Assembly (NCBI RefSeq): GCF_050920415.1
Contig: NZ_CP169309.1
DNA: 64,000 nucleotides
Reading direction: 5' to 3' (one strand)
Origin: Escherichia coli
Lineage (GTDB): Bacteria; Pseudomonadota; Gammaproteobacteria; Enterobacterales; Enterobacteriaceae
Below are positions 2,067 to 25,433 of the stretch, piece after piece (the stretch's first letter is position 1; every line of letters starts with the position of its first letter). The position numbers and the translations under genes are program-made. The notes under the pieces were generated by a model. It was given only the letters and a program-made list of their open reading frames with translations, searched no databases and was not told the DNA's origin.

Positions 2067-2426
2067 TTATCCACGTTTCAGTTTAAGCGCCAATGATAGA
2101 GCATTCTGTGATAGTGGATCATGGGGAAAGATCACATCGGGCTGTAAATCAGCAGAATGCATGCCCGTAATTGCGGGAATTTTTTGCGGTCGGGCGAAGA
2201 CAGTCAGTCCTTTCATAAACAAGGTGTCGACGATGCGCTGCTGATCGTCCAGGGCGATGGCGACCACGACCCGCGGTTTAAAGCGCCCGCTGGAACGGCC
2301 CACGCCAACCCGCCCTTGCTGGCATAGTGTGTCGAAGGCACGGTTAAAACGAGAAATTTGCCAGCCGCCTAAGGCCAGTTGCGCACACCAGGCGATAACG
2401 GCGACGGTGATGAGTGCGGATACCAT
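2067..2426 (-). CDS. gutM: glucitol operon activator
   Basis: 119 aa ORF; synteny. Confidence 0.85.
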   Translation of the reverse strand: MVSALITVAVIAWCAQLALGGWQISRFNRAFDTLCQQGRVGVGRSSGRFKPRVVVAIALDDQQRIVDTLFMKGLTVFARPQKIPAITGMHSADLQPDVIFPHDPLSQNALSLALKLKRG

Positions 2427-2457
2427 AACTTTTCCTTAATGTAGTGGCGGAAGTCCT

Positions 2458-2487
2458 GTAGGCCTGATAAGCGTAGCGCATCAGGCA
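2458..2487. repeat. REP (repetitive extragenic palindrome) unit
   Basis: gtaggcctgataagcgtagcgcatcaggca matches REP consensus; adjacent hairpin 2501-2525. Confidence 0.6.
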
Positions 2488-2531
2488 TTCTATTAGTCTC
2501 GCGGAGATCCTTAACGGATCTCCGCTGTTGA

Positions 2532-3686
<1,155 letters not shown>

Positions 3687-3696
3687 GTTTCAGCCT

Positions 3697-5234
<1,538 letters not shown>

Positions 5235-5471
5235 TTATTGTTTTATTACCAAATGGCAACCTAATCTAATCAGATTGAAAGATTTAAAAGTGTTATTTTG
5301 ATCTCAAAATGAAAGATAAATATTTTAATTTGAAAGTTTGTATAAAAGGATAGTGAGGCGGATGAGTTGAGTTATGTAAAGTCTGTATCGGGCAGTGACT
5401 ACCGCTTCCTTGTGCAGGGCGGGATGCTTTACCATACTTGCCCCTGGTTGAATTTGTTAAATGGACCCCTC

Positions 5472-16621: not shown

Positions 16622-16696
16622 AGAAAAAGGCCACTCGTGAGTGGCCAAAATTTCATCTCTGAATTCAGGGATGATGATAACAAATGCGCGTCTTTC
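16622..16696 (-). ncRNA. micA: sRNA MicA (SraD), sigmaE-dependent regulator of ompA
   Basis: Reverse complement reads gaaagacgcgcatttgttatcatcatccctgaattcagagatgaaattttggccactcacgagtggcctttttc, with terminal hairpin and U-run. Confidence 0.9.
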
Positions 16697-16764: not shown

Positions 16765-17280
16765 ATGCCGTTGTTAGATAGCTTCACAGTCGATCATACC
16801 CGGATGGAAGCGCCTGCAGTTCGGGTGGCGAAAACAATGAACACCCCGCATGGCGACGCAATCACCGTGTTCGATCTGCGCTTCTGCGTGCCGAACAAAG
16901 AAGTGATGCCAGAAAGAGGGATCCATACCCTGGAGCACCTGTTTGCTGGTTTTATGCGTAACCATCTGAACGGTAATGGCGTTGAGATTATCGATATCTC
17001 GCCAATGGGCTGCCGCACCGGTTTTTATATGAGTCTGATTGGTACGCCAGATGAGCAGCGTGTTGCTGATGCCTGGAAAGCGGCAATGGAAGACGTGCTG
17101 AAAGTGCAGGATCAGAATCAGATCCCGGAACTGAACGTCTACCAGTGTGGTACTTATCAGATGCATTCGTTGCAGGAAGCGCAGGATATTGCGCGTAATA
17201 TCCTGGAACGTGACGTACGCATCAACAGCAACGAAGAGTTGGCGCTGCCGAAAGAAAAGTTGCAGGAATTGCACATCTAG
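16765..17280 (+). CDS. luxS: S-ribosylhomocysteine lyase (AI-2 synthase)
   Basis: 171 aa; HTLEH metal-binding motif. Confidence 0.97.
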
Positions 17281-17293
17281 TCAATTGAAGAGG

Positions 17294-17326
17294 CCGGGCA
17301 GGTGATATCACCGCCCGGTTTTTATT
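17294..17326 (+). terminator. rho-independent terminator after luxS
   Basis: ccgggc / gcccgg stem followed by tttttatt; sits between convergent luxS and the HD-kinase gene. Confidence 0.7.
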
Positions 17327-18437
17327 ACCTGTCAGTCACCCGATATTCCACGCTATGTGCTTCATCAGGTTGAGGAACTTCCAGCCTTGAGGCCATCCGC
17401 ATCACGACCGCTTCAGGAACGGCATACTCGCGCCTGGCATTTTGCTGCTTCCATTGCGCCCACGGTACTTCCAGATAAACGATTTTTACTCGTGCACCGT
17501 AAGCCGTAAACAGACTGATGAGCTGGCTACGCAACTGGCGGGTAATGTTCGTTGCATTCCAGATGAACGGCTTCTTCTGGCGTAAAAAAACGCGCGCTTC
17601 TTCTTTTGCCTGTTGCACAATACGCCCGGTGGCGGTTTTGTCGTCCGGACTGGCATTGATTCGCCGCCGCATATCATCAAGGCTGATAACGTTCACTCTC
17701 TGGCACTGTTCACTGATAAAGCGATCTTTGCCCATACCCGGTAAACCACACAGCAAAATAACCTCAAAAGATTCAGCCTCCCAGGGAACAAAATCAGGAG
17801 AACTTTGTTCATGGGTCAGGTAATGCCAGCGTGCGGAATCCGAAGCGAATGAACGCACTTTTCCCCAGCATTGTTGCTCCTGGCAAAATAGCTCGAACAG
17901 ATCGATGCGTTCCAGCATTGATTGCTGATCATGACAATGGCGACCAAGCAGATCGGCACGAGCAAGCAAAGCGAGCAGACGCGTGTCGATACGCATTGCA
18001 GCCGTGAGCAGCAAACGCTCCGGTTCCGGACGTTCCAGTAACCATAGCGGTAACCCATGCAGACGCACCAGTGCAACAATTTGCTCGCGTAGCACGAACG
18101 GCGTCGGGATATCGCGCCATAAAATTTGTCGGGCCGTCAATTCACCCCGACGAGCATGACCAGGAGACTGAATACGTCCGTTTTCCTGCACGGTAGTACT
18201 GCGCTTTTCAACGTCATGCAATAACGCCGCCGCCCATAAAATTTCCTGCTGCTGAGCGGGGAGTTGCTGAAACTCAGCCATCGCAACGAGTGCGTTCAGC
18301 ACCATTTCAGTATGCACACCAACGTCGCCTTCACCATGATGCTCCGGGTCTTGCGGCGTGTTATGCATATCCTCAACCCAGCTAAAACGCTGGCGTAGCG
18401 TCGACCAGCGTTTGTCGTCGGTAAGTTGCCAAATCAT
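17325..18437 (-). CDS. HD-domain phosphohydrolase fused to P-loop (polynucleotide-kinase-like) domain; putative RNA end-healing enzyme
   Basis: 370 aa; N-terminal [10 protein letters not shown]...LLHDVEK; C-terminal Walker A GLPGMGKD then LDDMRRR; start overlaps upstream ligase stop (ATGA). Confidence 0.6.
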
Positions 18438-19141
18438 GACTGTTCTCCATAAGCGAACTCATGGGCCATCCGCGCCCGTCGCCAGTGGCGTTTCCAGTGC
18501 TCGGTGGTTTTGACATGATTTTTGCGTACATACTTGAAGACGTTATGCGAAAAGTCAGCGACGGAAAACGCATCACTATTCCGGCTGACAATGCCTTCCA
18601 GCGTACAGGGTTGCCCGGTTTGCGTATCCCAGGGATCGAACGCGCCGCGCGCATTGGTCAGCGCCAGAAAATCACGTTGCCAGCTTTTTTCATCATTCCC
18701 CGGCTGCGGGCCGGAGATTTCGGGAACGCAGGGGAAATCAAACAGAGCGGCGTAAAACTGCACCTCTTCCCAGCTCAGCCACATATCCTGGCAGCGAACG
18801 GCAAACAGATAAAAATCCTGCTCCAGGGCGCGATATTCAATCGAATGAACGGCATAAAGATTTTCACCAAACAACTCCAGATCGCCGAGATCGTTTTTCA
18901 GCAGTTGCCAGCGTTGGCGAATTTTATAGGTCCATGCCGATTGTGTAGGCGCGGCATGGGAACGGGCAAACACGCCGTAGCGGTTAAGGCAGTTATTTTC
19001 ACCGTCGAGTTTTTCTGTGTGCACCAATTGCGTGATGGCCTGTAAATCCTGCCAGTAATCGGTGTTAATACGGTCATCGCTGGTGGTGCCAGGGGAGAAA
19101 GGATAATGCCAGGTTCTCCCGTATTTACGTTGGGTATTCAT
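18434..19141 (-). CDS. compact ATP-dependent RNA ligase domain protein (Rnl2/Rnl5-like nucleotidyltransferase)
   Basis: 235 aa; motif [10 protein letters not shown], motif [11 protein letters not shown], motif IV LEGIVSR, motif [12 protein letters not shown] in canonical order. Confidence 0.65.
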
Positions 19142-19361
19142 AATAATCCATTATTTTTTGTGTAATAAACGTACGCCCGCGAGGGTGCGAGTTATGGGGT
19201 TAAAAAAAATGTGAGTATCACCCGCGAAAGCGAGGGCGAAGAAAAAAGAGAGTTAACAACCTGAGCGAATGCTCAGAACCGGTTAATGGTGAATGGAAGA
19301 GTTTGGGGCGGCGAAAAGATACACCGTTTGAGATGATAAAACAACCGTTTACAGAATGAGC

Positions 19362-19389
19362 AAATAAAAAGGGAGCCGCAGCTCCCTTT
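19362..19389 (-). terminator. rho-independent terminator after emrB
   Basis: gggagc...gctccc hairpin followed by U-run on minus strand. Confidence 0.7.
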
Positions 19390-19396
19390 GACAACC

Positions 19397-20935
19397 TTAG
19401 TGCGCACCGCCTCCGCCGCCACCTGCGCCAAATGGCGGTTTAGCAAACCACACCAGCCCCAGCAGGACGAGGAATATCCCGGCTGACATCCAGAAGATCT
19501 CATTGGCGGAAATAATCAGCCCCTGATTGGTGATCTGCTGGGCAATCCAGCCTGATGCCTGTTGTTGCGTCATCCCCAGCCCTTCCAGTTGGCTGTACAT
19601 CGCCTGAGCGTTCGGGTTAAACGGGTTTACCGACTCGGTTAACTGTGCGTGGTGCATCGACTCGCGGTTAGTCCACATGGTGGTGGTGATGGATGTGCCG
19701 ATAGACCCCGCCAGCGTTCGCGTAAAGTTAGAGAGGCTCGATGCCGCCGCCAGTCGTTCCGGTGGCAAACCAGACAGCGTAATGGTGGTCAGCGGCATAA
19801 AGAAGCAGGCCACTGCGAAGCCCTGGATAAACTGCGGCCAGGCCGACGCACCAAAATCCATACCCGGTTCAAAGGTATAGGCACGCCAGTAGAAGCAGAC
19901 GGCATACATAATAAAGCTGAAGGTTACCAGCCGCCGCATATCCAGTTTATGCGCGAAGCGGCCGATAATCGGCGACAGGATCACCGGAATAATCCCTACC
20001 GGCGCAGAGGCCAAACCTGCCCAGGTCGCCGTGTAACCGTAGACCTCCTGCAACAACTGCGGCAGCAGAACAATCGCGCCGAAGTAGAGCATATACGCGA
20101 GGCTGATACACAAGCAGCCGATGGTGAAGTTGCGCGACTTAAACAACGACAGATCGACTATCGGGTTATCGTCGGTCAGCTCCCAGACAATCAGGAAGCA
20201 GATAGCCACCACCGCCACCACGGTGAGGATGATTATTTCCTGCGATGAGAACCAGTCCAGCTCTTTACCGCGGTCGAGCATAATCTGCAGGCTGCCGATA
20301 CCAATCACCAGCAGTGCCAGCCCCACGGCATCAATCCGCCGCCGTTCGGTGCGGGTTTCGCGTCCGCGCAGGGTTTGCAGTGTCATCAACACCACCGCCA
20401 CGCCAATCGGCACGTTGATGAAGAATATCCAGCCCCAGTGGTAATTATCGCTGATATAACCGCCGAGGATCGGGCCGCAAATTGGCGCGACAATCACCGT
20501 CATCGACCACAACGCCAGCGCGATCGAGCGTTTTGCTGGCGGGTAGTTATTCAGCAATAGACTTTGCGAAAGCGGGATCAACGGCCCGGCGACAATTCCC
20601 TGAATCACGCGGAAGAAGATCAGCATATTCAGGCTGCTGGAGACACCACACGCCCACGACGCAATAGCAAAGGCGATGGTCGACCAGAGGAACAGCTTCA
20701 CTTCCCCAACGCGCTTTGCCAGCCAGCCGGTAAGCGGGATCGAGATGGCATTCGCCACCCCGAAAGAAGTGATTACCCACGTTCCCTGGCTGAGCGATGA
20801 GCCCAGATTCCCGGCGATAGTGGGGATCGCCACGTTAGCAATGGTGGAGTCCAGCACCTGCATGAATGTCGCCAGTGACAGCGCAATCGTCATAATGACC
20901 AGTTGCGCGCCTTCCAGCGGTTTTTGCTGTTGCAT
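19397..20935 (-). CDS. emrB: multidrug efflux MFS permease EmrB
   Basis: Start chosen at MQQQKPLEG (512 aa); 14-TMS MFS profile; synteny. Confidence 0.92.
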   Translation of the reverse strand: MQQQKPLEGAQLVIMTIALSLATFMQVLDSTIANVAIPTIAGNLGSSLSQGTWVITSFGVANAISIPLTGWLAKRVGEVKLFLWSTIAFAIASWACGVSSSLNMLIFFRVIQGIVAGPLIPLSQSLLLNNYPPAKRSIALALWSMTVIVAPICGPILGGYISDNYHWGWIFFINVPIGVAVVLMTLQTLRGRETRTERRRIDAVGLALLVIGIGSLQIMLDRGKELDWFSSQEIIILTVVAVVAICFLIVWELTDDNPIVDLSLFKSRNFTIGCLCISLAYMLYFGAIVLLPQLLQEVYGYTATWAGLASAPVGIIPVILSPIIGRFAHKLDMRRLVTFSFIMYAVCFYWRAYTFEPGMDFGASAWPQFIQGFAVACFFMPLTTITLSGLPPERLAAASSLSNFTRTLAGSIGTSITTTMWTNRESMHHAQLTESVNPFNPNAQAMYSQLEGLGMTQQQASGWIAQQITNQGLIISANEIFWMSAGIFLVLLGLVWFAKPPFGAGGGGGGAH

Positions 20936-25242: not shown

Positions 25243-25351
25243 TATTTTTGTTCATCAGGTGATGATTAAGCTGGAAATCAATAATAGCGGATGTTGATGA
25301 ATATGGGATGAAAGATAGATTGTTGAAATGTGCGGTGTGGTTTGTAGACAT

Positions 25352-25423
25352 GATAAGACGCGCCAGCGTCGCATCAGGCATTGTGTACAGAGCGGCGGAT
25401 GAGGCAAAAACGCCTTATCCGCC
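25352..25423. repeat. pair of REP-like palindromic units between ygaY and proX
   Basis: gataagacgcgccagcgtcgcatcaggca and gcggcggatgaggcaaaaacgccttatccgcc. Confidence 0.55.
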
Positions 25424-25433
25424 CGAGTAAAAA

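Follow-up and report, generated by a model that had tools for sequence, protein, structure and literature searches.

A predicted end-healing and end-sealing gene pair between luxS and emrB of Escherichia coli

In the K-12 strain of Escherichia coli, emrB is the direct neighbour of luxS, and the annotation leaves a gap of 63 bp between the two genes. What, then, are the two additional genes that occupy this place in other E. coli chromosomes, and on what kind of molecule would their products act? Here, we go through this locus as it is found in a stretch of 64,000 nucleotides of E. coli (assembly GCF_050920415.1, contig NZ_CP169309.1), which is called the window below. When the K-12 junction is aligned to the window by BLAST, homology stops at position 17283 and restarts at 19396, and a segment of 2112 bp stands in place of the K-12 spacer, which is about 59-63 bp according to BLAST and the K-12 annotation. 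The segment carries two genes on the minus strand, one for a small ligase-like protein (LIG) and the other for a predicted bifunctional end-healing enzyme (HD-Pnk). The pair is probably a self-contained heal-and-seal operon for broken polynucleotide ends, and RNA is a more likely target of it than DNA. The features on which this proposal is built are as follows.

17284..19395, no strand: segment without a K-12 counterpart, from BLAST of the K-12 junction and the K-12 annotation
18434..19141, minus strand: LIG, a 235-aa stand-alone nucleotidyltransferase resembling ATP-dependent polynucleotide ligases, from PF09414, motifs, predicted fold and homology to DR_B0100
17325..18437, minus strand: HD-Pnk, a 370-aa predicted bifunctional end-healing enzyme, from Pfam, NCBIfam, the structural model and homology to DR_B0098
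17868..18359, minus strand: predicted HD phosphoesterase domain of HD-Pnk, around residues 27-190, from the columns of alignment A1
17364..17768, minus strand: predicted P-loop polynucleotide 5'-kinase domain of HD-Pnk, around residues 224-358, from alignment to 4gp6, Foldseek and alignment A1
18434..18437, minus strand: ATGA shared by the LIG stop and the HD-Pnk start, read from the sequence

A first-pass annotation, made by a model from the letters of the window alone, had already placed two minus-strand open reading frames (ORFs) of 235 and 370 aa at 18434-19141 and 17325-18437, had seen the four nucleotides shared by the stop of the ligase gene and the start of the kinase gene, and had stated that luxS and emrB are adjacent in K-12. 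Each of these points holds: the two ORFs are present where it put them, the overlap can be read directly, the K-12 annotation gives the adjacency and lacks the cassette, and the alignment to the K-12 junction that it proposed as a check gives the break in homology mentioned above. The ATGA overlap supports translational coupling, by which LIG and HD-Pnk would be made together.

That HD-Pnk would heal polynucleotide ends is well supported by homology, by its catalytic residues, and by published activities of two homologues. Its residues 226-355 match AAA_33 in Pfam with E=2e-31, and residues 41-139 match HD (PF01966), weakly for the single sequence (E=1.6e-3), while the same HD family is found precomputed on many HD-Pnk homologues. 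In NCBIfam, the kinase half has the kinase module of bacterial Pnkp as its best match and the N-terminal half has the HD/HDIG region of CCA-adding enzyme; the match of HD-Pnk to TIGR04075 covers only profile positions 8-137 of 851, with 36 bits against a cutoff of 750. The two-domain structural model has a pLDDT (predicted local distance difference test) of 90.8, and the Foldseek list for it is headed by polynucleotide kinases, namely CthPnk of Clostridium thermocellum, mammalian PNKP and T4 Pnk. Walker A of HD-Pnk corresponds to G231-D238 and includes K237, with D254 and R257 downstream, and in a residue-level alignment these three residues face the P-loop lysine, the aspartate and the arginine of C. 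thermocellum Pnk (4gp6), which we take to be Lys21, Asp38 as the general base, and Arg41. In alignment A1, which consists of 15 sequences from two phyla, the HD ligands H34, H42, H74, D75, H94, H127 and D162 are invariant, as are K237, D254 and R257, and H33/H34 of the HD domain are among the conserved columns (invariant or nearly so). The doublet H74-D75 has its counterpart in the alignment to DR_B0098 from Deinococcus radiodurans, where the HD doublet is H81-D82 by the numbering of PMC1997131. HD-Pnk of the window carries an N-terminal HD domain and a C-terminal P-loop kinase domain on one polypeptide with the catalytic residues kept, as do members of the HD-Pnk family.

Then, is the smaller protein a ligase? 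Residues 38-205 of the 235 residues of LIG match RNA_ligase (PF09414) with E=5e-28 in a Pfam profile search. Motif I reads HTEKLDGEN, in which the lysine is K44, encoded at 19010-19012, and motifs I, III, IV and V are invariant among 20 homologues; at the level of single residues, K44, E89/F91/E93, E182/G183/R187 and K203/K207 are invariant or nearly so in that alignment. There are 37 residues ahead of motif I, and the C-terminus comes 28 residues past motif V. The structural model (pLDDT 77) shows one nucleotidyltransferase domain and no accessory domain. Among solved folds, those nearest to the model in Foldseek are NgrRnl, an Rnl5-type enzyme, and the nucleotidyltransferase domain of T4 Rnl2 (1s68), with E of about 3e-6 to 3e-5, a TM (template modelling) score of about 0.5 and 18-20% identity. 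Sequence and profile searches of the PDB with LIG found no relative; matches to hemocyanin and to the designed protein Tako8 appeared there, and we rejected them as chance because they are repeat-driven artefacts. The likeness to Rnl5 ligases (NgrRnl, and DraRnl, which is DR_B0094) is limited to the common nucleotidyltransferase fold, and LIG lacks their N-terminal accessory domain; likewise it lacks the C-terminal nick-recognition domain of Rnl2 ligases such as T4 Rnl2 and the trypanosome RNA-editing ligases, so that LIG falls outside both groups. What it shares with LigB of D. radiodurans and other proteins of its own type is the order of motifs, a size of about 210-240 aa and the lack of any accessory domain. 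In the PGAP annotation, LIG is simply an 'RNA ligase family protein'.

The ligase motifs quoted in the first-pass annotation, and the HD signature, Walker A and subsequent kinase motif that it gave for the 370-aa ORF, are all found in the two proteins. The profile and structure searches that it suggested returned significant matches on both sides, to RNA_ligase with an RNA-ligase-type fold for the one, and to AAA_33 and polynucleotide kinases for the other. The domain set it had drawn, a stand-alone ligase nucleotidyltransferase beside an N-terminal HD phosphoesterase and a C-terminal P-loop of polynucleotide-kinase type, agrees among profiles, structure and residues.

Has such a gene pair been described before? 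The first-pass annotation regarded it as an undescribed system, and this view has to be given up; the operon type is already known from Runella slithyformis and D. radiodurans (PMC6097658, PMC1997131, PMC6300522), and the cassette is the E. coli member of this HD-Pnk and ligase operon family. In PMC6097658, HD-Pnk of R. slithyformis, studied in the Shuman laboratory, is described as an N-terminal HD 2',3'-phosphoesterase followed by a C-terminal 5'-OH kinase, and an ORF for a putative ATP-dependent ligase lies directly upstream and overlaps it. The window has the same two genes, with the ligase ORF immediately upstream of and overlapping the HD-Pnk start, and the same order from HD domain to P-loop kinase. 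Some relatives of the window pair have an adjacent gene for the RNA 2'-phosphotransferase Tpt1, as Runella does, whereas the E. coli window has neither Tpt1 nor methyltransferase-HIT genes nearby. This likeness is drawn through relatives, with Dyadobacter, which belongs to the family of Runella, as a proxy for the Runella sequence itself: in Bacteroidota relatives including Dyadobacter, identity to the proteins of the window is 53-59% for HD-Pnk and 52-69% for the ligase, the nearest proxy being Dyadobacter endophyticus with 55% identity. A Runella protein was found neither among the 80 loci described below nor among the named matches of a homology search seeded with Dyadobacter.

As for Deinococcus, the first-pass annotation had drawn a parallel to the pair of DRB0098 and DRB0094, and only half of it stands. 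HD-Pnk is indeed homologous to DR_B0098 of D. radiodurans R1 (28% identity over the full length, about 394 columns, E=4e-30), but the ligase partner is DR_B0100, that is LigB, to which LIG is 36% identical over 214 columns (E=2e-28), with the motif I lysine aligned and a common N-terminal motif KY.(R/S).H.P.SPG..(S/N)DD; direct comparison of LIG with DR_B0094 (DraRnl) gave no detectable similarity (E=2.3). The D. radiodurans operon runs from ligB (DR_B0100, ddrP) through DR_B0099 to DR_B0098 (PMC1997131, PMC6300522). The ligase comes first, as in the window, whereas the macro-domain/PARG gene DR_B0099 separates it from HD-Pnk, the HD-Pnk protein is about 45 residues longer, and the operon is plasmid-borne, radiation-induced and connected with DNA-damage phenotypes. 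On other Deinococcus plasmids, LIG and HD-Pnk are found in the overlapping two-gene form. DRB0098 has 5'-kinase activity, shown on a DNA oligonucleotide (PMC1997131), and ligation by LigB has been reported only with DR_B0098 and PprA present (PMC6300522).

In a wider sense, the heal-and-seal logic of T4 Pnkp and Rnl, to which the cassette had been likened at first reading, is borne out by its domain set and homology. T4 Pnkp with Rnl1, and bacterial Pnkp-Hen1 of C. thermocellum, run through the same series of 3'-phosphoesterase, 5'-OH kinase and ATP-dependent ligase, and the kinase domain of the window protein is homologous to those of T4 Pnk and CthPnk. Differences are found in the other parts: the phosphatase of T4 is a DxDxT acid phosphatase and that of C. 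thermocellum is a binuclear metallophosphoesterase, whereas the phosphoesterase of the window protein is an HD domain, which places it outside the T4 Pnkp and bacterial Pnkp groups. The domain order of HD-Pnk is reversed relative to T4, and, compared with both systems, the ligase is separate and minimal and no Hen1 methyltransferase is present.

How would such an operon work? By analogy with the homologues in the literature, from which kinase, phosphoesterase and ligase adenylylation are carried over, the HD domain would strip 2',3'-cyclic, 3'- or 2'-phosphates to leave 3'-OH, the P-loop domain of HD-Pnk would phosphorylate 5'-OH ends, and LIG would adenylylate itself on Lys44 and then seal the healed 3'-OH/5'-PO4 ends. 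Because LIG has no accessory domain, it probably has to be bound to HD-Pnk, or to meet a particular structured substrate, in order to act. For the sealing step we rely on the ligase motifs and on strict pairing; as LIG is always found together with a maker of 3'-OH/5'-PO4 ends, sealing would be the simplest explanation.

The next question is whether the ends belong to RNA or DNA, and here the neighbours of the pair in other organisms are informative. When about 100,000 genomes, each standing for one species, were scanned, 342 species had a relative, and 80 loci were kept. In every one of these 80, which come from two phyla, the LIG gene immediately precedes that of HD-Pnk on the same strand. 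Neighbour clustering of the 80 places RtcB next to the pair in 26 (Serratia, Bacteroides, Phocaeicola, Parabacteroides, Mucilaginibacter, Dysgonomonas and Flammeovirgaceae), release factor H (PrfH; TIGR03072, E=1.5e-91) is found in 14, and Tpt1 (E=4e-79) in two. In Serratia (loci L012-L016 of our set), rtcB2, prfH, LIG and HD-Pnk make a single cluster on the same strand; rtcB or rtcB2 and prfH stand directly upstream of LIG and HD-Pnk on the same strand also in Bacteroides (L038, L045, L053, L060, L061, L063 and L080), Mucilaginibacter (L064) and Dysgonomonas (L070), these genes lying at about 2300-5300 of each listed locus. In the Dysgonomonas locus, Tpt1 is inserted between prfH and LIG to give a six-gene cluster. 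We found no earlier description of this linkage of rtcB2-prfH with LIG-HD-Pnk in the available literature. In many phyla the pair occurs also on megaplasmids or secondary replicons, and an uncultured jumbo phage (LR756500.1, 462 kb) has LIG and then HD-Pnk, with 39% and 34% identity to the window proteins (L091:3273-5041).

The gene context of RtcB, PrfH and Tpt1 points to an RNA substrate, and in Enterobacteriaceae this may more likely be tRNA or rRNA cut by ribotoxins or under stress than DNA. The RtcB2-PrfH module is physically linked to LIG-HD-Pnk in the other taxa and is absent from the window. The two also differ in ligation chemistry, RtcB being an enzyme that joins 3'-phosphate or 2',3'-cyclic-phosphate ends to 5'-OH ends. 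After cleavage by colicin E3, ribosomes are rescued and religated by RtcB2-PrfH (PMC9223846), and Burroughs and Aravind have regarded it as a counter-ribotoxin repair system which accretes accessory genes (PMC6514570).

Two further observations concern these neighbours. A protein family of 245-686 aa, numbered f52 in our clustering, recurs beside RtcB and LIG-HD-Pnk in Bacteroidota (L066:4398-5135, L070:1769-2503, L077:3126-3914 and L079:2934-4994), and no match to it was found in Pfam or NCBIfam. In K-12, rtcB2 (ykfJ) and prfH are seen only as pseudogene remnants beside the yafNO toxin-antitoxin pair (L086:2468-3203).

Several facts speak against a heal-and-seal operon for RNA. Firstly, sealing has not been cleanly obtained in vitro for ligases of this type (PMC6097658; PMC1997131; PMC6300522): the Runella ligase forms the covalent enzyme-AMP and yet joined none of the 3'-OH/5'-PO4 DNA or RNA substrates tried (PMC6097658), and DRB0100 showed no DNA ligation in one study (PMC1997131). 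Secondly, the only in vivo phenotypes of the family come from Deinococcus and consist in sensitivity to ionizing radiation and to mitomycin C, which points to DNA damage (PMC6300522). Thirdly, tblastn against the whole window gave no match for RtcB, PrfH or Tpt1, and no defence model of PADLOC meaningfully matches the pair, since none matches LIG and HD-Pnk gives only a marginal Cas3-HD match (E=0.01). Finally, 4427 of 5426 complete E. coli genomes (about 82%) are without the cassette, the ligase of CFT073 is a frameshifted pseudogene (L003:2646-3343), and HD-Pnk of O145 RM9873-C1 is a pseudogene with an internal stop (L090:237-1349); therefore, the cassette is dispensable.

Could the pair then be a DNA-break repair system, in which HD-Pnk heals 3'-phosphate/5'-OH DNA ends that oxidative damage or radiation has produced and the ligase closes nicks, as proposed for ligB and its operon in D. 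radiodurans? In favour of this, DR_B0100 and DR_B0098 are homologues of the window proteins, the Deinococcus operon is radiation-induced, and sensitivity to ionizing radiation and to mitomycin C was seen in its HD-Pnk mutant (PMC6300522). The kinase activity of DRB0098 seen on a DNA oligonucleotide (PMC1997131) fits as well, and so does the title of the Runella paper (Munir and Shuman, 2017, J Bacteriol 199:e00739-16), which, as given in the reference list of PMC6097658, speaks of a DNA/RNA end-healing enzyme. However, conserved neighbours of the pair outside Deinococcus are the RNA enzymes RtcB, PrfH and Tpt1 and include no DNA-repair genes, the fold of LIG is nearest to RNA ligases, and the one study of DRB0100 just cited was without DNA ligation (PMC1997131). 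Inspection of the leader by eye only, with no motif search, found no LexA-box-like sequence. Altogether, we think DNA repair an unlikely duty for the E. coli pair, although it deserves the first place among the alternatives.

It is also conceivable that LIG joins no strands at all, and that its lysyl-AMP is used for adenylylating, capping or marking an RNA end, so that the pair would remodel or tag ends instead of closing them. LIG is a bare nucleotidyltransferase domain without OB (oligonucleotide-binding) or C-terminal module, and the isolated nucleotidyltransferase domain of T4 Rnl2 is known to be defective in complete nick sealing. The Runella homologue, which ligated no tested substrate (PMC6097658), and DRB0100, which did not ligate DNA (PMC1997131), can be counted for this idea too. 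On the other hand, it is hard to reconcile with invariance of all the ligase motifs I, III, IV and V and with strict pairing to an enzyme that yields 3'-OH/5'-PO4 ends, and failure in vitro may reflect a missing partner or substrate, as activity of LigB was reported with DR_B0098 and PprA present (PMC6300522). We therefore hold such a non-joining role to be quite improbable.

What has been the fate of the cassette within E. coli? The pair is present at the luxS-emrB locus in 999 of the 5426 complete genomes, always chromosomal and in single copy. Most E. coli copies are 90-95% identical to that of the window, including those of ST131 and CFT073, and both genes are intact in ST131 (L089) and in the window strain. 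When divergent alleles of E. coli are compared, the ratio of nonsynonymous to synonymous substitution rates (dN/dS) is 0.06-0.14, and the dS of the cassette, 0.14-0.28, is equal to what emrB, emrA and luxS show for the same pairs of strains. Judged from these values, the cassette is under purifying selection, with occasional pseudogenes. As its dS equals that of the flanking core genes and its dN/dS is low, the pattern agrees with a cassette that has long been inherited vertically at this locus and was lost from other lineages, and it does not look recently inserted. Beyond the species, in Escherichia, Kosakonia, Klebsiella spallanzanii, Phytobacter, Enterobacter and Superficieibacter, the pair is always located downstream of emrR-emrA-emrB. 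That it is a decaying remnant without current function in E. coli, for which its lack in 4427 of 5426 complete genomes, the ligase frameshift of CFT073 and the internal stop of O145 RM9873 could be cited, is very improbable given this dN/dS with dS matching the flanking genes, both genes intact in ST131 and the window strain, and a site downstream of emrB, together with a leader, kept across several Enterobacteriaceae genera. A search for E. coli-specific literature on an RNA ligase with emrB and luxS found none.

How is the cassette delimited and expressed? Three flanking features, in addition to those listed above, are to be considered.

19142..19367, minus strand: conserved leader and putative promoter region upstream of LIG, from conservation across genera
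19368..19389, minus strand: emrB intrinsic terminator, from a terminator scan, the hairpin being kept in related Enterobacteriaceae
17292..17326, plus strand: hairpin ending luxS (about 17292-17319) and T-run, from folding energy

The terminators that had been noticed at first reading on both sides of the pair are there. The one of emrB, found by the scan, sets emrRAB apart from the LIG-HD-Pnk cassette. On the other side, the luxS hairpin folds on the plus strand with -24.3 kcal/mol (z=-4.3); on the minus strand, the same hairpin, without T-run, lies 3' of the HD-Pnk stop and folds with -19.7 kcal/mol (z=-2.3).

The 226 bp from the emrB terminator to the LIG start are conserved across Enterobacteriaceae genera far above the expectation for a spacer. 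Two elements of this leader are invariant, namely CTTCCATTCAC, which could base-pair with the ribosome-binding region AAUGGA, and a CTGAGC-loop-GCTCAGG hairpin whose loop is variable. The leader including CTTCCATT might thus be a candidate for masking of the ribosome-binding site. A test for conserved structure gave zero compensatory pairs and no covariation with z=-1.9, which is a hint, and no Rfam family was found in or near the cassette even at a permissive threshold. A promoter scan found no sigma-70 consensus promoter on the minus strand; a weak candidate, TTGTTT-N17-TATCTT, lies in the leader and is suggested by conservation alone.

Several other elements of the window may be recorded here. 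The small RNA MicA is located between gshA and luxS, as in K-12 (16625-16696, minus strand), and a match to naRNA4 (CssrE) barely exceeds the gathering score (25347-25424, minus strand). Within 47721-64000, a tRNA-Ile is followed by pseudogenes of ypjC type and of an AIDA autotransporter (around 48548-55610), and a prophage-like block with integrase, excisionase, XRE regulators, an ORF6N protein and Lar begins at about 55930.

If the neighbours in other taxa and the leader are considered together, a more specific picture can be drawn, which we put forward as a speculation with a rather small chance of being right. The pair of E. coli phylogroup B2 and its relatives might be a dedicated arm of RNA repair for the translation machinery, belonging to the RtcB2-PrfH pathway, which would, for instance, heal and seal those breaks in rRNA or tRNA that have ends unsuitable for RtcB. 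LIG would need both HD-Pnk as a bound partner and its specific structured substrate for activity, and therefore generic substrates would have failed in vitro, and a leader masking the ribosome-binding site would prevent expression of the operon as long as translation is undamaged.

What does the presence of this pair in E. coli mean for the study of the family? At the level of annotation, PGAP under-annotates HD-Pnk as 'AAA family ATPase', and this label, like 'ATP-binding protein', should become HD-Pnk-type polynucleotide kinase/phosphoesterase. The central question of the family is what the ligase joins, RNA or DNA, and E. coli offers a genetically tractable host for asking it. About 18% of complete E. 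coli genomes, including pandemic ST131, carry the pair at a fixed locus, and strains such as CFT073 and O145 provide natural pseudogene controls. As to the substrate, the recurrent linkage to RtcB, PrfH and Tpt1 in other taxa gives a concrete hypothesis from which the quest can go on.

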